Below, piece by piece: positions 8,329 to 50,700 of a DNA stretch of 57,674 nucleotides (the first letter of the stretch is position 1; every line of letters starts with the position of its first letter). The position numbers and the translations under genes are program-made. A model generated the notes under the pieces. The model saw nothing but the letters and a program-made list of their open reading frames with translations, was not told the origin of the DNA and searched no databases. Source of the stretch: Gammaproteobacteria bacterium SCGC AG-212-F23 (GTDB lineage Bacteria > Pseudomonadota > Gammaproteobacteria > DSM-16500); assembly GCA_001644445.1 (NCBI GenBank), contig LSTE01000001.1, positions 1 to 57,674 of the forward strand, given 5' to 3'.

Positions 8329-9405
8329 GTGACTAAACAGCGCATCTATTTAGTGCTGGCGGTTGGGGTTCTTGCTGTAATAATACGTTTATTAGTTTTT
8401 GTTTTTATGCCTGTTGTTCATGATACAGCAGGTGTGAAATATCTCGTTTCACCTGGTATGACTTTTCAAACGGTTGTTACTGATCTAAATCAACAAAAAA
8501 TTATTACCCATCCTTTTTTATTTGAATCTCTCATTGTGTTACGTGGCGCAACCCATCGTTTAAAAAAAGGCGAATATCTATTCCGTCAAGGTTCTACTCC
8601 TTTAACAATGATTAATCAAATGATGACAGGTACAGGTTTGGTGCAATATGAGTTTACACTGGTTGCGGGATGGAATATCACACAAGTAAAAAATGCGTTA
8701 GCAAAAGAAAGTGTTTTACGTCACTCAATAGAACACATGAGTGACAAAGAAGTAATGGATAAATTAGAATTACCGAACGATTTTTCCCCCTTTGAAAAAG
8801 AGGGGTCCATGGAGGGAATGTTTTTTCCAGAAACATATTTTTATACTAGAGGTTCGTCAGATATAGGATTGCTAAAACGCGCATTGCGTTTGATGAAGAA
8901 TAAATTAGATAAAGCATGGATTAACAGAGATGTCGACCTTCCTTTTGAAACACCATACCAAGTATTAATTGTCGCATCACTAGTTGAAAAGGAAACGGCG
9001 GTACCCGCTGAGCGCGCTATTATTGCGGGTGTTATTATCAATCGTCTTAAGCATAATATGTTATTACAAATTGATCCTACTGTGATTTATGGGTTAGGAT
9101 CGCGTTATACTGGCAAGATTCGTAAAGAAAATTTGCAAGATAAGAGCCCTTATAATACTTATCTTAACAAAGGGTTGCCTCCTTCGCCGATCGCAATGCC
9201 TAGCATGGAAGCGTTACTTGCTGTTTTACATCCGCAACACAATGATTACTTTTATTACGTTGCAAAAGGTGATGGGACACATATTTTTTCAAAATCTTTA
9301 GTTGAACATCGTGCTGCGATACAAGAGGTCAAAAAAACAGTAGGGCGTCGTCCCGCGGCTTGTCCGCGGGATCCAGCTTGTTTATCAGTAAAGGATAAGC
9401 TATGA
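8329..9405 (+). CDS. mltG: Endolytic murein transglycosylase MltG (YceG family), with a repeat-derived C-terminal tail
   Basis: GTG start and an N-terminal TM helix. YceG motifs are VEKET, QIDPTVIYG and YNTYLNKGLPPSPIAMP. The last ~20 codons run through repeat module A (see findings). Confidence 0.88.
   Translation: MTKQRIYLVLAVGVLAVIIRLLVFVFMPVVHDTAGVKYLVSPGMTFQTVVTDLNQQKIITHPFLFESLIVLRGATHRLKKGEYLFRQGSTPLTMINQMMTGTGLVQYEFTLVAGWNITQVKNALAKESVLRHSIEHMSDKEVMDKLELPNDFSPFEKEGSMEGMFFPETYFYTRGSSDIGLLKRALRLMKNKLDKAWINRDVDLPFETPYQVLIVASLVEKETAVPAERAIIAGVIINRLKHNMLLQIDPTVIYGLGSRYTGKIRKENLQDKSPYNTYLNKGLPPSPIAMPSMEALLAVLHPQHNDYFYYVAKGDGTHIFSKSLVEHRAAIQEVKKTVGRRPAACPRDPACLSVKDKL
9346..9376. repeat. Module A palindromic end (CGTCGTCCCGCGGCTTGTCCGCGGGATCCAG), solo copy inside the mltG 3' end
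   Basis: Exact 31-nt match to copies at 13780, 40714, 44472, 47457 and 48060. It has an internal 7-bp stem, CCCGCGG-cttgt-CCGCGGG. Confidence 0.95.
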
Positions 9406-12941: not shown

Positions 12942-13620
12942 TATTTTAGAATGTGTTGGTTTATCGAAAAGTTATGCTGAAAATTCTTCTAAGATTGATA
13001 TTCTGCAGCAAATCAATTTTTCAGTAAAATCTGCTGAACTTGTTGCGATTGTTGGGGTATCTGGTTCTGGCAAAAGTACTTTTTTACACCTTTTAGGTGG
13101 CTTGGATAAACCTACATCGGGTAAAGTTACATTATTAGGCTATGATTTGGCAACGTTGTCTGAAAATATGAAATGTGAATTACGTAATAAACATTTAGGA
13201 TTTGTTTATCAATTCCATCATTTATTACCTGAGTTTACCGCCTTAGAAAATGTTTCTATGCCTTTGCTTATTCGTGGTAATATTGCAACGAATGTGATTC
13301 GAGAAAAAGCCAGTCACATATTAGAAAAAGTGGGGTTAAAAGATCGTATGCAACATAAAAGCGGTGAACTTTCCGGTGGCGAACGTCAACGAGTAGCTAT
13401 TGCTCGTGCTTTGGTAGCTAACCCAGATTGTATTTTAGCAGATGAACCTACTGGTAACTTAGATCCAAGAAACGCCGAAAAAGTATTAGAATTATTTTTT
13501 GATTTACAAAAAACCTTCCAAACCAGTGTTGTTATGGTCACTCACGATGCCCAAATTGCTAAACGTGCGCAAAGAATTTTGATGATTGAAGAGGGTAGAT
13601 TGATAGAATCTGGGCATTAA
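12934..13620 (+). CDS. lolD: Lipoprotein-release ABC ATPase
   Basis: Walker A GVSGSGKST, signature LSGGERQRVAIARAL and Walker B ILADEPTGNLD. Confidence 0.9.
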   Translation: MNNILECVGLSKSYAENSSKIDILQQINFSVKSAELVAIVGVSGSGKSTFLHLLGGLDKPTSGKVTLLGYDLATLSENMKCELRNKHLGFVYQFHHLLPEFTALENVSMPLLIRGNIATNVIREKASHILEKVGLKDRMQHKSGELSGGERQRVAIARALVANPDCILADEPTGNLDPRNAEKVLELFFDLQKTFQTSVVMVTHDAQIAKRAQRILMIEEGRLIESGH

Positions 13621-13623
13621 TTT

Positions 13624-13954
13624 CCCCTCACCCCAACCCTCTCCCGCTATAGAGTTCATTTTTTTGCAATACTCATAGCGGCGGGAGAGGGAGCTTTATG
13701 TATCGTTCTAAATTTCCCTTCAATTCCCGCTCTAGAGTTCATTTTTATGCAATACTCATAGCGGATTGCTCTAAATAAACGTCGTCCCGCGGCTTGTCCG
13801 CGGGATCCAGAGAATACTCGTCATCCCCGCATGCTTTAGCGGGGATCTCCTCCTCTACTAGCTAGAAAAGAACAATCAAATAGAGCTCCCTCTCCCGCCG
13901 CTATGAGTGTTGCAAAAAAATGAACTCAATAGCGGGAGAGGGTTGGGGTGAGGG
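13624..13954. repeat. Composite nested repeat: module D arms flanking a partial D copy, a module A end and a module B hairpin
   Basis: The D left arm (13624..13695) and D right arm (13884..13954) are reverse complements at 69/71 nt. Between them lie a partial D (13714..13764), A (13780..13810) and B (13819..13850, CGTCATCCCCGCATGCTTTAGCGGGGATCTCC). Confidence 0.92.
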
Positions 13955-13978
13955 TAAACCAATAAAAGGAAAAAATAC

Positions 13979-16279
13979 ATGAAAATATTAATTTTATTAT
14001 TTCTAACCGGCATTATATGCCTACAATTTTTTTCATACATACCATCATTAAAAGGCATAATTTTCTTATTAATTATTTTTTTACTTCTAAAATATTTCAC
14101 AACAAAATTCCCACAAACATTAAAAATTATTATCGCAACTTTAATGGGTTTCACCTGGGTCTTATACTTCTCCTTATCGCATCTTTCCTGGTCAGTTCCA
14201 AGCGATCAAGAAGGAAAAACCATCCTCATCACCGGGCAAATCACATCCATCCCCAACACAGAAAACCATACAACCAGTTTTCTATTCCAACTAAAAACAT
14301 TTAACAATAAACCCACCAACGCTTTAATAAAACTGAGCTGGCGTAATTCACTAGAACATTTGCATGCAGGTGAACAATGGCAACTCTACGTACGCCTAAA
14401 AAAAATCCATAGTTTAATGAATCCAGGCGGTTTCGATTATGAAACCTACGCATTTCAACAAGGCATACGCGCAACCGGCTACGTTGTTACAAAAAATATA
14501 GAAAATAAACGAATAACTAATCATTGGTACCATCAACCATTAAATCGGGTCCGCCAATCGTTAAAAGAAAAAATAGAAAATAATGTTCCGCTTAGTAATA
14601 CTTCACCATGGCTAGTTGCTTTAGCTTTAGGCGAAAGACATGGCATTGCTCCCGAAAATTGGCAAGTATTAAGAAATACAGGCACTAATCATTTGATGGC
14701 AATTGCCGGCTTGCATATTGGTTTTATGTCAGGATTTATTTTTGCTTTAGTCAGTTGGTGTTGGCGTCGTATTCCTGCGTGTGCATTAGTATTGCCGGCA
14801 CAGCATGCGGGTGCAATTGCAGCATTAATGATGGCCTTGATTTACAGTATGCTCGCGGGATTTTCTATTCCCACGCAACGTGCATGCATTATGTTAATGA
14901 CTTTTTTGTTATGGGTGTTATCCAATAAAAAAATAATTGCATGGCAAGCATGGTTTACTGCATTGCTTTGTGTTTTATTATTCAATCCACTTAGCACACT
15001 TGATGCTAGTTTTTGGTTGTCATTCGGTTCAGTCGCATTAATTATTTATGGAGTAAGCGCAAGAGTCGCAGCAAAAGGTTTGTGGTGGAAATTGGGTAGA
15101 ATCCAATGGGTTATCGCAATAGGATTAATTCCACTCAGTATTTGGTTGTTTCAACAGTGCTCAATCGTTTCATTTGTTGCTAATAGTATTGCTATTCCTT
15201 GTGTTGGTTTTATTATCGTGCCTCTTTGTTTATTAGGTTGTTTTTTTCTAATGATTTCAGGAAAGATTGGCGGATTGATTTTATTGCTAGACGATAAAAT
15301 ATTAGCGTTGCTTTGGAAAGTGCTTGCTTACCTTTCACAGTTATCTTGGAGTTCTTGGTATCAAGTTGTGCCAGAGCATTGGATTTTATGTAGCGCTTGT
15401 GTGGGTGTTTTTCTTTTATTGTTGCCAGCGGGTATGCCGGGAAGATGGTTAGGTATTATTTGGATGTTGCCTATGTTTTTATATAAACCAACAATACCTA
15501 AAGAGGGCGAAGCGTGGTTTACATTGTTAGATGTAGGGCAGGGGTTAGCTAGTGTTGTAGAAACACGTAAGCATATTTTAGTTTTTGATACAGGTGCGCG
15601 TTTAAGTGATAGTTATGATATGGGTGCCAATGTCGTCGTGCCATTTTTGCGTACCATCGCTGCGAAAAAAATAGATATGTTAGTGATTAGCCACGGTGAT
15701 AATGATCATATCGGCGGTGCAAAAGCTGTGTTGACTGCATTACCTGTCTCTGCTGTTAAAACCAGTGTTCCAGAAATGTTGCCAACACATAATACTAGTT
15801 ATTGTTTGCGTGGTGAATCTTGGCGTTGGGATGGTGTAGAATTTTCATTTCTTTCTCCTGTTAAAGAAACCTTGAATCAAGGAAATGATAGCTCTTGTGT
15901 ATTACGTATTCGTGCTGCAAATAAAACAGTATTATTTACAGGTGATATTGAAAAATCAGCAGAAAAATTTTTAGTGGAAAATGAAAAAGCTAATTTAAGT
16001 GCTGATATTTTAGTAGCCCCCCATCATGGCAGCAAAACCTCCGGCCTAAAAGAATTCGTCGTAGCTGTTCATCCTAAAATAGTGTTACTCCCTCTAGGCT
16101 ATCGCAACCGTTACCATTTTCCCCATCCACAAATTCTCGCGCAATATGCAAATTTAGGCGCAATTTTTTATGACAGTGTCACAGCAGGTGCAATCACCTA
16201 CAAAATAAATTCTCAAGGGTTGATTTCTTCACCAGAACTTTATCGTAAAGAAAATAAAAAATTTTGGCATAATGATTAA
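13979..16279 (+). CDS. comEC: DNA internalisation competence protein ComEC/Rec2
   Basis: 766 aa. It has a polytopic ComEC membrane core and a C-terminal metallo-beta-lactamase domain (ISHGDNDHIGG, APHHGS). Confidence 0.88.
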   Translation: MKILILLFLTGIICLQFFSYIPSLKGIIFLLIIFLLLKYFTTKFPQTLKIIIATLMGFTWVLYFSLSHLSWSVPSDQEGKTILITGQITSIPNTENHTTSFLFQLKTFNNKPTNALIKLSWRNSLEHLHAGEQWQLYVRLKKIHSLMNPGGFDYETYAFQQGIRATGYVVTKNIENKRITNHWYHQPLNRVRQSLKEKIENNVPLSNTSPWLVALALGERHGIAPENWQVLRNTGTNHLMAIAGLHIGFMSGFIFALVSWCWRRIPACALVLPAQHAGAIAALMMALIYSMLAGFSIPTQRACIMLMTFLLWVLSNKKIIAWQAWFTALLCVLLFNPLSTLDASFWLSFGSVALIIYGVSARVAAKGLWWKLGRIQWVIAIGLIPLSIWLFQQCSIVSFVANSIAIPCVGFIIVPLCLLGCFFLMISGKIGGLILLLDDKILALLWKVLAYLSQLSWSSWYQVVPEHWILCSACVGVFLLLLPAGMPGRWLGIIWMLPMFLYKPTIPKEGEAWFTLLDVGQGLASVVETRKHILVFDTGARLSDSYDMGANVVVPFLRTIAAKKIDMLVISHGDNDHIGGAKAVLTALPVSAVKTSVPEMLPTHNTSYCLRGESWRWDGVEFSFLSPVKETLNQGNDSSCVLRIRAANKTVLFTGDIEKSAEKFLVENEKANLSADILVAPHHGSKTSGLKEFVVAVHPKIVLLPLGYRNRYHFPHPQILAQYANLGAIFYDSVTAGAITYKINSQGLISSPELYRKENKKFWHND

Positions 16280-16345
16280 AAATTTATATTGAAAACACAT
16301 ATTGCTTAATCATGTTATTCTGATAGAGATATTGAATAAATATGA

Positions 16346-16616
16346 GATGATTGCGATACACTCAGGCCGTAGGCCTGGTAGCTCCACTAGCCTAGGGCAA
16401 GTGCACGCTCTTTGTGCGCGCCGCCCTAGGTAAGAGGCTTTCCTATGTGATGTTTGCGCTGTAAGCGCATTCTCTAGAAAATGATTGGTAGCTATTGCGC
16501 TTACAGCGCAAGCAATTTAGAGAGGATCATTGTTACCTAGGGCGGCGCGTGAAGAGCACGCTTGCCCTAGGCTAGTGGAGCTACCAGGCCTACGGCCTGA
16601 GTGCATCACAATTATC
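16346..16616. repeat. Module E: ~270-bp long imperfect palindrome
   Basis: The outer arms CTCAGGCCGTAGGCCTGGTAGCTCCACTAGCCTAGGGCAAG (from 16361) and their reverse complement (ending 16603) match perfectly over 41 bp. The inner pair is TGCGCTGTAAGCGCA / TGCGCTTACAGCGCA. It lies between convergent comEC and the J-domain gene. Confidence 0.92.
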
Positions 16617-16646
16617 TAGAGTAATCCAATGTTGATTGGGTTATTT

Positions 16647-17825
16647 TTAATGAGTTTTTTTAATTTTCAACGCCTCATTCGCCAAATTAAGCAGCGTCAT
16701 CTGTTCGCCCGCAAGCACTGGGTCAATTGTACCTGCTGCCACTTTATCAGGATGCCAGAAGAGAGAGAGTTCTATATAAGATGCCCTGATGGCAGCTTTT
16801 TGCTCTTTTGGAGATTTATTGTTATGTATTATTGGGTTAATTTTTAATATTTTAAAAGCAATAGTACGGCATTTGTCTATTTGATCATTGGTTCTTGCTT
16901 TGAATGGATTTTCGGCGAAAGGATCCTTCAGTTGACACTGACTGCTCAATGTATCTTTTTCTTTGTCTGATAATAGGACTATTGTTGGCATCGGTTTATA
17001 AAAACGATTATGAACATGTTTTCCAACCAAAGAACCTCCACAAAATGCCAAATCACCCACTAATTTTTTCAAAAATATTTCTGACTTAGGATAAGAAAAT
17101 GGTGTTTGTGGTGATCGTCTAGCTTTGATGAAATCAAAAATATAATCAGATAAACCTTGCAATAAGGTTCCGCCAATATAACAAGCGACAAGAGCACCAT
17201 TAGATTCCGACATATAGTCAATCGCAATTCCTAACCCTAAACCTGTTAACCAATAAGCTTGTTTTGATGGATTTCGCATTGTTGCATTAACAGCAACTTT
17301 GCTCAGTGATTGTGTTAATAGCCCGCTAAATATATGAGAATAGCTAGTATTATATTCTTCACCATAATAACAACCTGCAAAAAATAAAATACTTAACGCA
17401 TATTCAGCATGATCTAATCTAATGGTTGAGAGAATTTCAGGTGCTAATTCGTTAATAGCATGAATGAAATTAGAAGGATGCTCAAAATAATGGGTTTGTT
17501 TAAACGCTGACAATGCAGAATAAAATAAGTTAGCAATAAATTCACGTGTTTTACATATGCGCTGACTTCGAGTGACTTCACGTTTTAAAAGAGCGAATAT
17601 CTTATAGGTTTGTGATGTAATAACTGTTTCTAATCGGATGATTTCTTCCATTCGATTTAATAATTGTAAAGATAATATGCCATCAGATGAGCTGTTCAAT
17701 AAATCATACATAGATTGTATATGGGTAGGGTAGTCTTTAACCCTAGGAAGAATACTTATAATCTTTCTGCCAACACTAGTTTTATACTCTGAAAGTATTT
17801 TTAAGGCTTGTTTTTTTGTAAGCAT
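16647..17825 (-). CDS. Membrane-associated protein with a C-terminal DjlA-like J domain
   Basis: 392 aa. The extreme C-terminus, ...AAIRASYIELSLFWHPDKVAAGTIDPVLAGEQMTLLNLANEALKIKK, carries the HPD tripeptide and helix pattern of a J domain. Hydrophobic Gly-rich segments (AYWLTGLGLGIAIDYM, GALVACYIGGTLLQGL) lie mid-protein. The N-terminal 300 aa resemble nothing I recognise. Confidence 0.65.
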   Translation of the reverse strand: MLTKKQALKILSEYKTSVGRKIISILPRVKDYPTHIQSMYDLLNSSSDGILSLQLLNRMEEIIRLETVITSQTYKIFALLKREVTRSQRICKTREFIANLFYSALSAFKQTHYFEHPSNFIHAINELAPEILSTIRLDHAEYALSILFFAGCYYGEEYNTSYSHIFSGLLTQSLSKVAVNATMRNPSKQAYWLTGLGLGIAIDYMSESNGALVACYIGGTLLQGLSDYIFDFIKARRSPQTPFSYPKSEIFLKKLVGDLAFCGGSLVGKHVHNRFYKPMPTIVLLSDKEKDTLSSQCQLKDPFAENPFKARTNDQIDKCRTIAFKILKINPIIHNNKSPKEQKAAIRASYIELSLFWHPDKVAAGTIDPVLAGEQMTLLNLANEALKIKKTH

Positions 17826-22890: not shown

Positions 22891-25463
<2,573 letters not shown>

Positions 25464-25474
25464 AAAAAATTTTG

Positions 25475-25710
25475 CCCCTCACCCCAACCCTCTCCCGCTG
25501 TGGGGTTCATTTTATTTCATGATAGCTAGCGGCGGGAGAGGGAGGATTGCTCGTGTACGTTAATTCTCCTGCTCTTGGGTTCATTTTATTTTATAATAGC
25601 TAGCGGCGGGAGAGGGAGGATTGCTCGTGTACATTAACTCTCCCTCTCCCGCCGCTGTGACGGTGAAAAATAAGATACCTTTCTAGCGGGAGAGGGTCGG
25701 GGTGAGGGGG
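25475..25710. repeat. Module D composite with an internal 61-bp unit duplicated at a 74-bp period
   Basis: The left end CCCCTCACCCCAACCCTCTCCCGC (25475) is matched by the right end GCGGGAGAGGGTCGGGGTGAGGGGG (to 25710). The units at 25503..25563 and 25577..25637 are near-identical direct copies. Confidence 0.9.
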
Positions 25711-25713
25711 TTA

Positions 25714-26058
25714 CTATTCTTTATTTAATAAAACCAACTCACGATTCAACGAATAATTCAGCACCGTACGGATAACCACTATAATTGCCAATAGTCCCAC
25801 CGCATAATAATCCGGCGTAGTCGTAGTTCCAATTAAATCCGCAGCAACAATAAATTCCAATCCTAGGATTAAGGTACGACCCAAATTCATTCGTATGAGA
25901 TTAATTGCTTGATTATCAGTAGACGCTTGCCCTGAAAAAATATAATAAAAATACTTTCCCAGTGCAGATAATACACCCGTGAGAATGACAACAATTGCCA
26001 AAATAGAAATAAAGCGCTGAATGAAGACTAATCCTTCATGAATCAGTTGCCAATGCAT
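25714..26058 (-). CDS. DUF1622-like small membrane protein
   Basis: 114 aa with 3-4 TM segments. The motif RMNLGRTLILGLEFIVAADLI is typical of DUF1622. Confidence 0.7.
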   Translation of the reverse strand: MHWQLIHEGLVFIQRFISILAIVVILTGVLSALGKYFYYIFSGQASTDNQAINLIRMNLGRTLILGLEFIVAADLIGTTTTPDYYAVGLLAIIVVIRTVLNYSLNRELVLLNKE

Positions 26059-32240: not shown

Positions 32241-32311
32241 TTCACAATTGAATAACTGAAAACTGGCTGAAAGCCTGATAGCTTTAGAATATAGAGTGAT
32301 AAATTTAGAGT

Positions 32312-44441: not shown

Positions 44442-44471
44442 AAAGCGTTGTTGCATGATTCCTCTGATATA

Positions 44472-44546
44472 CGTCGTCCCGCGGCTTGTCCGCGGGATCC
44501 AGAGGATAACTTATTCTGGTTCCCGTGAACAAGTCACGGGACGACG
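44472..44546. mobile_element. Module A, complete 75-bp unit (best-defined copy)
   Basis: Left end CGTCGTCCCGCGGCTTGTCCGCGGGATCCAG, a 13-nt spacer and right end CTGGTTCCCGTGAACAAGTCACGGGACGACG. It lies between the convergent hemF and 145-aa ORF stops. Confidence 0.9.
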
Positions 44547-47419: not shown

Positions 47420-47456
47420 CCGCTTTGCGTTGTTGTATAATTTCTCTGATGATACA

Positions 47457-47592
47457 CGTCGTCCCGCGGCTTGTCCGCGGGATCCAGTGTCATCCCGAGG
47501 TGTGTTTTTCACACCGAGGGATCTCCTGCTTACAGGGAGATCACACGCGTAGCTCGGGATGACACGAGTGCGCACTGGATCCCGCGACGACG
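47457..47592. mobile_element. Nested element: module C inserted inside module A, with a truncated A right end
   Basis: A left end at 47457..47487. Module C at 47487..47565 is bounded by GTGTCATCCCGAG / CTCGGGATGACAC, with internal hairpins at 47499..47515 and 47520..47542. The A right end at 47575..47592 lacks 12 nt of the hairpin. Confidence 0.9.
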
Positions 47593-48033: not shown

Positions 48034-48816
48034 CTACTTGAATTTATATCCTCGCAAGGCGTCGTCCCGCGGCTTGTCCGCGGGATCCAGTATTTTAGTT
48101 GATGCAGATACTGTTGTTATGTTTGTATTTATCGGTTGATACAACGTAGCTGTAGTTGCTGTGAGAGGCCTAGATGAAACTACTGCTGTGTTTGGCGAAG
48201 AATTACTAGTTGCTGCTTTTGTCCCTGCATTTTGTACATAATGATTTTTAAGATTGATAATATGATTTCGTGTATTTAAAGCGAGAGCATCAAATTGTAT
48301 AGCTGAGATTCCTCGTGACATCATGCCGTGCAAGTTGTCAAAATATTGATTAAAACAATCAAGTGCGAGATCGGTAGTCATCCATTTTCTCTTTACCCAT
48401 TCGGTGACACATTGATTTCGCTTTTTGTATGCATCTATGTATTCATTGGGTGACAAAAAATGAAATGTTTTAAAATATACATGACATTGAGTGTCATATA
48501 AATGTAAGAGAAGAGGTGCTACTATAAATTGTTTTTTTTGCAAATACTTGTTAAGACTATCTTCATAAGATTTAAATGTTACTTCATTTGGGAAATTTGT
48601 AGCACAACTCATTGTTTGTAGAAATTCGGGTATATATTTATCACGCATGGTGTTGGCAAATTCTTTCATGTCATCTGTATCTATTGCCGCTAATGCTTTG
48701 AAATATGCTGTATGTATTGTGTTAAACCAATTAATAAGTAATCCTTCAATATTAGTATTATTATGTATAGAGGTTTGAATAGTGCGAATTGAAGGTATCG
48801 ATCGCGAAAATGACAT
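48034..48816 (-). CDS. Orphan protein with an S/T-rich tail and a repeat-derived C-terminus
   Basis: 260-aa ORF. The last 19 aa (..ILDPADKPRDDALRGYKFK) are read through module A at 48060..48090. Confidence 0.6.
   Translation of the reverse strand: MSFSRSIPSIRTIQTSIHNNTNIEGLLINWFNTIHTAYFKALAAIDTDDMKEFANTMRDKYIPEFLQTMSCATNFPNEVTFKSYEDSLNKYLQKKQFIVAPLLLHLYDTQCHVYFKTFHFLSPNEYIDAYKKRNQCVTEWVKRKWMTTDLALDCFNQYFDNLHGMMSRGISAIQFDALALNTRNHIINLKNHYVQNAGTKAATSNSSPNTAVVSSRPLTATTATLYQPINTNITTVSASTKILDPADKPRDDALRGYKFK
48060..48090. repeat. Module A end, solo copy inside a CDS
   Basis: Exact 31-nt match to the other A ends. Confidence 0.95.
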
Positions 48817-50603: not shown

Positions 50604-50615
50604 CCTAAGATTTTA

Positions 50616-50700
50616 CAGACCGAAGGTCTGAAGATTTAGCCTGGGGTTAACAACGCGTTTTTTGCGTGGCAATAATGCCATATCTTTTTAAGCGCTGTAA
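50616..50700. repeat. Module E, half copy
   Basis: CAGACCGAAGGTCTG hairpin, then TAGCCTGGGGTTAACAACGCGTTTTTTGCGTGG, then AGCGCTGTAA. It parallels the left arm of the 16346 and 32312 copies. Confidence 0.7.

Follow-up and report, generated by a model that had tools for sequence, protein, structure and literature searches.

The window analysed here, a stretch of 57 674 nucleotides of a gammaproteobacterial genome, contains a long palindrome between two convergent genes, and the locus raises the question of what such a structure is, how it came to be there and why it persists. The palindrome covers 271 bp (positions 16346-16616). Its outer arms (16345-16401 and 16561-16617, 57 nt) are 95% complementary and include a perfect 41-nt core, CTCAGGCCGTAGGCCTGGTAGCTCCACTAGCCTAGGGCAAG, present at 16361-16401 on the forward strand and at 16561-16601 on the reverse strand; in a control for the arms, none of 100 shuffled sequences gave any match. 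Further inside, a 17-nt pair (16417-16433 and 16533-16549) is perfectly complementary, and the centre holds the inverted pair TGCGCTGTAAGCGCA (16455-16469) and TGCGCTTACAGCGCA (16496-16510). An earlier sequence-only reading of the window had described these features (a long palindrome with perfect outer arms of 41 bp, imperfect inner parts and a central inverted pair), and all of them are present. It had also noted that flanking bases extend the symmetry, which holds as well; a weaker similarity of the ends may reach about 16330 and 16632. Folded as single-stranded DNA, the palindrome has a free energy of -116 kcal/mol, compared with -42.8 +/- 3.5 in shuffled sequences (z = -20.8); the RNA fold reaches -232 kcal/mol (z = -22).

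The palindrome starts 66 nt past the stop codon of comEC and ends 30 nt from the stop codon of a convergent open reading frame of 392 aa (16647-17825, reverse strand). The sequence-only reading had placed it between comEC and a J-domain gene. The first assignment is right, the identity of ComEC being confirmed. The second is weaker: the sole Pfam signal of the 392-aa protein is a DnaJ match at residues 339-387, which at 17.2 bits stays below the cut-off of 27.8 bits. The protein has no homologue at E <= 1e-10 among 30 relatives, and its gene looks like an orphan that encodes a J-like segment at the C-terminus. A search of metagenome contigs for ComEC gave a best relative with no more than 45% identity, and neither of these two routes led to an empty orthologous site.

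The palindrome is not specific to the comEC locus. The genome (a 1.46-Mb MAG of 125 contigs, 64% complete, 38.5% G+C) was searched with BLAST and with an nhmmer profile of the arms. This census, which the sequence-only reading had proposed, gave about 37 half-modules on many contigs, in the form of inverted doublets, solo arms and decayed remnants; the strict pattern described below matches 24 times in the same 64%-complete assembly. There are six full doublets (the window copy and those on contigs C32, C34, C41, C50 and C121), hybrid doublets (window positions 32307-32530 and contig C101) and solo arms on contigs C24, C54, C101, C116, C72 and C56. Three contigs end inside the element (C26:1-52, C31:1-92 and C104:30454-30517), so that the true copy number must be higher. 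All 13 loci examined in this genome are intergenic, with convergent neighbours in seven cases and tandem neighbours in four; a further two have a gene on one side only because of contig ends, and no locus has divergent neighbours. The copies are 70-94% alike and none are near-identical, which may indicate that the activity is old, with the caveat that identical copies would collapse in a MAG.

Solo arms occur beside doublets, and comparison of the copies shows that the basic unit is not the whole palindrome. It is an arm module of about 110 nt, composed of three local, self-complementary hairpins, H1, H2 and H3, a string that the sequence-only reading had overlooked in each arm. H1 is CAGGCC-GTA-GGCCTG. 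H2 consists of an outer stem, CCTAGGGC/GCCCTAGG, around a small G+C hairpin. H3 is TGCGCT-GTA-AGCGCA and is oriented toward the centre. The motif GTA(G/A) is located in the loops of H1 and H3, and not at the foot of a stem. The two arms of one doublet are of different subtypes, with an H2 core of 21 nt in type a and of 17 nt in type b, and the spacers between H2 and H3 are also unlike. This difference in subtype accounts for the imperfect inner pairing noticed earlier.

In the window, the whole gene-less doublet, named module E (16346-16616, forward strand), has an a-type arm on the left and a b-type arm on the right. Its left terminal segment, GATGATTGCGATACA (16346-16361), matches the end motif (A)ATTGCGAT(G/A), which is conserved at nearly all copy ends. 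There follow, all on the forward strand, H1 (TCAGGCC-GTA-GGCCTGG, 16362-16378), in which all seven pairs have compensatory changes; the H1-H2 linker (16379-16390), locally unpaired, with its complementarity to the other arm of the doublet kept; the composite H2 (16391-16430), with the outer stem CCTAGGGC/GCCCTAGG and the a-type inner stem GTGCACGC-TCTT-TGTGCGCGC; and H3 (16455-16469), the hairpin that is always gene-proximal in transposase-containing units. The central spacer of 26 nt (16470-16495) occupies the position of the Y1 gene in complete units. The right arm, on the reverse strand, comprises H3' (16496-16510), H2' (16536-16571, with the b-type inner stem GCGTGC-TCTT-CACGCGC), H1' (16584-16600) and the right terminal segment TGCATCACAATTATC (16601-16616).

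The window was said to hold three related copies, and all three exist, but they are unequal. The first is the full doublet. The second (32307-32530, forward strand) is a hybrid doublet: its left arm is of type E, its right arm is of the sister type E' (see below), and its H3 hairpins abut. The third (50613-50700, forward strand) is a decayed solo arm with an intact H1, an H2 that has lost its 3' half, and a truncated H3. Elsewhere in the genome there are solo H1 remnants that carry both terminal 'feet' (…ACATTCTCAGGCCTACGGCCTGGGAACAT…; C38:30895-30926 and C39:13260-13299). They look like doublets whose interior was lost completely when the two H1 palindromes recombined.

The origin of this arrangement is suggested by the transposase genes. 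There are two Pfam Y1_Tnp genes in the genome, on contigs C54 and C24, and their products are 63% identical. On C54, the Y1 gene is preceded by an E-type a-arm, whose end lies 23 nt upstream of the ATG (H3 end at 14,464, ATG at 14,493). The product starts with MSQSLSELWIHIIFSTKKRYPF and the contig stops about 15 codons short of the stop codon; only the upstream flank of this unit is therefore assembled, and a search for a contig with the missing 3' end and right flank found none that overlaps. The Y1 gene on C24 (153 aa) has inverted sister modules, E', on both sides, in the order H1-H2-H3 with H3 innermost. The half-modules can be divided by their nearest flank, 21 being closer to C54 and about nine closer to C24. 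The Y1 homologues of five relatives (G011, G018, G076, G092 and G060) are all flanked in the arrangement [H1-H2-H3]-gene-[H3'-H2'-H1']. The two sides of these units are 87-98% identical, and the stem sequences vary between genomes. A tRNA-like sequence (GGTAGCTCAGTCGGTAGAGCA…TTCGAGTCC…) was observed at C24:2770-2850, about 150 nt upstream of the E'-flanked unit, and is followed by a partial H2 fragment.

Because the same inverted layout surrounds the Y1 genes, the window palindrome corresponds to that layout without a gene. As far as sequence comparison can tell, it is made of two three-hairpin flanks of a Y1 gene, joined head to head with the gene missing; given the a-arm on the left and the b-arm on the right, the missing gene would read on the forward strand. 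We consider it likely that the palindrome is a non-autonomous REPIN-like doublet of Y1-transposase ends, dispersed in trans by a Y1 protein. The idea of a dispersed or mobile element, one of those put forward when the palindrome was first noticed, thus gains support from the census of about 37 half-modules and from the link of the module to a Y1 transposase gene. Another of those ideas, a protein-binding site, is probably right in the form of putative recognition hairpins for an HUH/Y1 protein, by analogy with known enzymes of this type.

The hairpins were examined in an alignment of 30 half-modules, consisting of the E and E' copies of this genome, the transposase flanks of the five relatives and the doublets of genome G006. 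The structure predicted by RNAalifold consisted of precisely these hairpins, H1, H2 (with its outer and its inner stem) and H3, with 97.9% of the alignment cells paired. Changes on both sides occur in 17 of the 24 pairs, compared with 6.5 +/- 1.6 in shuffled alignments, none of which (0/500) reaches 17; slid controls, in which the partners were shifted by one to three columns, gave only three to five such pairs. The hairpin structure is supported by covariation and is selected. In the H1-H2 linker, seven derived states are common to both arms of one doublet, where 1.6 are expected (P < 0.0005). As the linker is locally unpaired, these symmetric states indicate that selection, or conversion within the element, maintains the outer long-range stem as well.

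An alternative history would be that the doublets are independent deletion relics of full units, each of which lost its gene on the spot by recombination between the palindromic H3 hairpins, so that no doublet ever moved as such. This genome does contain internal deletions between palindromic hairpins, as in the solo H1 remnants on C38 and C39, and on the side of the a-arm the spacer is similar to the 5' UTR of the C54 gene. The central junction, however, is identical in the C32 and C50 doublets, near-identical in that of C104 and shortened in the window copy, a pattern pointing to one deletion followed by copying, and there are just two Y1 genes (63% identical) for about 37 half-modules. Moreover, the a-arms are 85-94% identical across loci and the b-arms 86-94%, compared with about 80% between a and b. 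The common central junction and the fixed pairing of an a-arm with a b-arm imply that the doublets spread as units. As judged from these sequences, a single gene deletion with subsequent copying of the doublet would fit the data, and independent decay of many full units would not; we regard the latter history as improbable.

The long terminal inverted repeats, together with the MITE-like size and distribution, would also suit a conventional MITE, derived from an insertion sequence with a DDE transposase and moved via terminal inverted repeats with target-site duplications. Such an origin is very improbable here. The sole gene found inside the same ends, in seven genomes, is a Y1/HUH gene, and the arms are built of covarying hairpins, which are typical of HUH substrates. 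At the two copies whose flanks are clean (in the window and on C121), direct repeats could not be seen, the exact ends being uncertain.

The partner of the doublet would then be a Y1 protein close to the IS200 group. Both Y1 proteins of this genome pass the NCBIfam IS200 model (74 and 83.6 bits, cut-off 55) and score 96-108 bits with Pfam Y1_Tnp. With the NCBIfam model for RAYT proteins (NF047646, REP_Tyr_transpos) they reach 30.8 and 37.9 bits, below the cut-off of 80. Their Y motifs are YINNQAKHH and YIENQVAHH, and not the Y---NP of class 2. The closest solved structure is IS608 TnpA, in which the HUH and catalytic-Y (YIENQ) motifs are aligned. The protein has about 150 aa, the motifs DH[VI]H (HuH), WQxGY and YIxNQxxHH, a conserved C-terminal tail of about 30 aa, a low copy number and diverged paralogues. 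Judged by published signatures alone, it fits TnpA-Y1 subclass 1.2, with which it shares the HuH motif DH[VI]H, WQ, Y---Q--HH, a length of about 148 aa, the tail of about 30 aa and the low copy number.

Quentin et al. 2018 (PMC6006769) tabulate subclass 1.2 as 'REP: no', without typical terminal structures, and describe it as mostly cyanobacterial and from Bacteroidetes. The genes described here, in contrast, are flanked by inverted hairpin modules in a REPtron-like manner, and they are found both in Gammaproteobacteria of the Coxiellaceae type and in ten or more other phyla. The subclass probably corresponds to a group that Bertels et al. 2017 (PMC5581495) call 'IS200 Group 3', an outlier that is never duplicated, never found on plasmids and flanked by abundant 16-mers; among the papers searched, no later one takes this up. 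At E <= 1e-30, the protein family comprises 123 representative clusters. Many of the best matches (P0001, P0003-P0006 and others) have about 290 aa with two matched stretches, and are tandem-fused double Y1 domains, possibly single-chain versions of an obligate dimer.

By BLAST, relatives of the element were detected in one other genus only (G006) among 40 relatives. A structure-based pattern, consisting of the H2 foot, the closing half of H2 and H3, reaches further. It is present in 13 of the 86 genomes of the family (reversed control, 0), which a cross-reference of contig names groups with 'uncultured Coxiellaceae' MAGs. These 13 include every one of the six genomes in which a strong Y1 homologue was detected (hypergeometric P = 3.7e-6, or 2.4e-5 without the genome studied here); the six span five genera and are thus not fully independent. 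In the assemblies of the other seven module-bearing genomes there is no subclass-1.2 gene, which could be due to loss or to assembly gaps. Other Y1_Tnp genes exist among these genomes and were considered as possible partners, but no module lies within 1.5 kb of them, so that they do not explain the orphan modules. Contig ends within modules were also seen in G061 and G076, and are frequent in MAGs of the family. Breaks of this kind mean that the copy numbers of the repeats and the presence of the transposase are underestimated in short-read assemblies, and the element accounts for numerous breaks between contigs, and for many 'MITE-like' spacers, in MAGs of the Coxiellaceae type.

Across one genome per GTDB species, the pattern matches at least 116 stretches. 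Among the matches listed, there are MAGs of Coxiellaceae/Legionellales, other Gammaproteobacteria, Planctomycetia, Verrucomicrobiota, Acidobacteriota, Sumerlaeota, Hydrogenedentota, Lentisphaerota, Bacteroidota, a Clostridiales genome and Acanthopleuribacter. Matches in Streptomyces and Roseococcus were set aside, as they have no H2 hairpin and look like chance occurrences in high-GC DNA. In the other phyla among the matches listed, the three-hairpin layout is complete, and H3 is the hairpin most conserved across phyla. By this pattern, the module would recur in at least ten phyla beyond the Coxiellaceae-type Gammaproteobacteria. Among 22 distant module-bearing genomes, 18 encode the protein, with one to four homologues each, and inverted repeats are present in the flanks of 25 of 30 distant Y1 genes.

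The module may be pan-bacterial, as it can be recognised in taxa that range from Coxiellaceae to Bacteroidota, Verrucomicrobiota, Planctomycetota, Acidobacteriota and others. We see an even chance that the subclass-1.2 protein is the partner of a previously undescribed pan-bacterial REPIN-like class with the unit H1 - AGCCYNGG..CCNRGG(T) - GCGCTGWARGCGC. If so, there would be a second, independent (or ancestral) route of domestication from IS200 to a system of the REPIN/RAYT type.

A different view of the palindrome is that a host function came first, such as a stabiliser of mRNA 3' ends or a barrier to transcription between convergent genes, a source of small RNA, or a site for a nucleoid protein or gyrase. 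Seven of the 11 two-sided loci are between convergent 3' ends and none is at a divergent promoter, the fold of the RNA is highly stable, and the outer arm-to-arm complementarity of 57 nt is kept. Precedents are found in REP/BIME elements and in the QMITE2 element of Coxiella burnetii, which yields the small RNA CbsR16 (Wachter et al. 2018, PMC5896051). On the other hand, the bidirectional terminator suggested in the sequence-only reading finds no support: no T-tract follows the stems, and a consensus scan of 15900-17000 detected no terminator-like site. The Rfam scan proposed at the same time gave no family match in 15500-17500, the only hit being a chance snoRNA match (E 0.68) outside the element. 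Nor is the sequence tied to this one locus, and the hairpins co-vary with the transposase gene across phyla, where a purely local function fails as an explanation. A primary host function is therefore unlikely, although it is compatible with a Y1-dispersed doublet as a secondary, exapted effect.

QMITE2 itself is, by its description, a comparable element of a related bacterial group (QMITE2/GTAG-REP; PMC5896051, PMC3733652). It is a structured element of 150-190 bp, located in intergenic regions or 3' UTRs, with full and truncated (REP-like) versions and a very stable fold, as in module E. Unlike module E, it is described with direct repeats of 7-11 nt and has no assigned transposase.

The doublet is ordinary in kind when compared with the REPIN-RAYT system (Bertels & Rainey 2011, PMC3116915), including the REPtron of E. 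coli (Ton-Hoang/Messing 2012, PMC3479197). In both cases there are inverted doublets of hairpin repeats dispersed in intergenic DNA, the same repeats invertedly flank a low-copy HUH/Y1 gene, and compensatory changes and restriction to a lineage are observed. The window element has inverted units separated by a short spacer of 26 nt, forms one long hairpin, and has many extragenic copies elsewhere in the genome. It lacks the single REP unit of 20-40 nt with a 5' GT[AG]G stem foot that characterizes REPINs; the unit here is a three-hairpin string of about 110 nt. The doublet has about 270 bp, whereas REPINs have about 70-110 bp, and the protein motif is Y---Q--HH, whereas class-2 RAYTs have Y---NP. 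BIMEs (bacterial interspersed mosaic elements) are likewise mosaics of palindromic units in alternating orientation, with repeat families nested in the same spacers, but they are composed of single REP units and defined linker motifs rather than of a fixed three-hairpin module. The partner enzyme and the three-hairpin unit appear to be undescribed.

Insertion sequences of the family IS200/IS605, such as IS608 and ISDra2, also share several features with the system described here, namely hairpin ends, no visible target duplication, and gene-less derivatives, known as PATEs. Their ends, however, are not inverted repeats of each other, whereas the flanks here are 87-98% inverted repeats, and they form many near-identical copies, whereas there are two genes here, 63% identical. 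Among replicators that persist for long within bacterial genomes and are inherited vertically, REP/REPIN-RAYT systems are the main example, and they have so far been tied to class-2 RAYTs. The present locus would tie an IS200-proximal and reportedly REP-less Y1 subclass to a larger three-hairpin repeat class of its own that is conserved across phyla. It offers a candidate for a link from IS200 insertion sequences to RAYTs in their domesticated form.

The activity of TnpA of IS608 and ISDra2, and of TnpA-REP of E. coli, is well established, and a mechanism can be proposed on this basis. By analogy with IS608 TnpA and E. coli TnpA-REP, the cognate Y1 protein (for E-type copies, that of the C54 gene) would recognise the hairpins in single-stranded DNA. 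A Y1 dimer would bind one or more of them and cleave near the conserved ATTGCGAT termini. Candidates for recognition include H3, the most conserved and gene-proximal hairpin, and H1, which is subterminal like the hairpins of IS608. The doublet would be excised and inserted by the Y1 protein in trans, without target duplication and probably at the replication fork; we infer this trans-mobilisation from the analogy. The window copy would be a passenger between two convergent 3' ends. Read-through transcripts at the comEC site would fold into a very stable hairpin, and a secondary effect on mRNA 3' ends is possible there. The module would also provide a testable DNA substrate for this uncharacterised family of HUH enzymes.

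In E. coli, long palindromes are made unstable by the nuclease SbcCD, and for this reason the sequence-only reading had taken the persistence of the palindrome in three related copies as a sign of recent mobility or of function. This argument does not apply here. SbcD (TIGR00619) was not detected in this genome, and it scores above the cut-off in one of the 86 family genomes (on a short contig), compared with eight of 14 controls. SbcCD seems, on this evidence, to be absent from the lineage, and the apparent paradox of a stable long palindrome disappears with it; the palindrome would persist as one of the long palindromes tolerated without the nuclease. Its asymmetric centre of 26 nt and imperfect interior also bear on its stability. 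The lack of SbcCD may be the reason why several families of long palindromes accumulate in this lineage.

Other repeat families are present in the window and elsewhere in the genome. A second family, CGTCGTCCCGCGGCTTGTCCGCGGGATCCAG, has six copies in the window (9341-9382, 13775-13816, 40709-40750, 44467-44508, 47452-47493 and 48055-48096), several of which are paired in inverted orientation. Its first letters, CGTC, are also those of the 'CGTC-tagged' REP superfamily described by Di Nocera et al. [quoted passage not shown] Other spacers, among them the one upstream of comEC, contain nested palindromes of 180-350 bp that belong to a third family, CCCTCACCCCAACCCTCTCCCGC... (13616-13963, 25453-25731 and 33292-33488). 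Finally, a hairpin unit, AAATCCCCCTTTTTCAAAGGGGG (+TTGCATAAATAA...), occurs as inverted pairs that bracket module E doublets and, elsewhere, other module families (C32:17079-17445, C34:8780-9150, C41 and C50:10020-10395; C32:20587-20849, C47:5623-5762 and C96:493-714). The window copy of module E has no bracketing unit of this kind. The AAATCCCCCTTTTTCAAAGGGGG pairs may represent a further REPIN-like layer or a preferred target.
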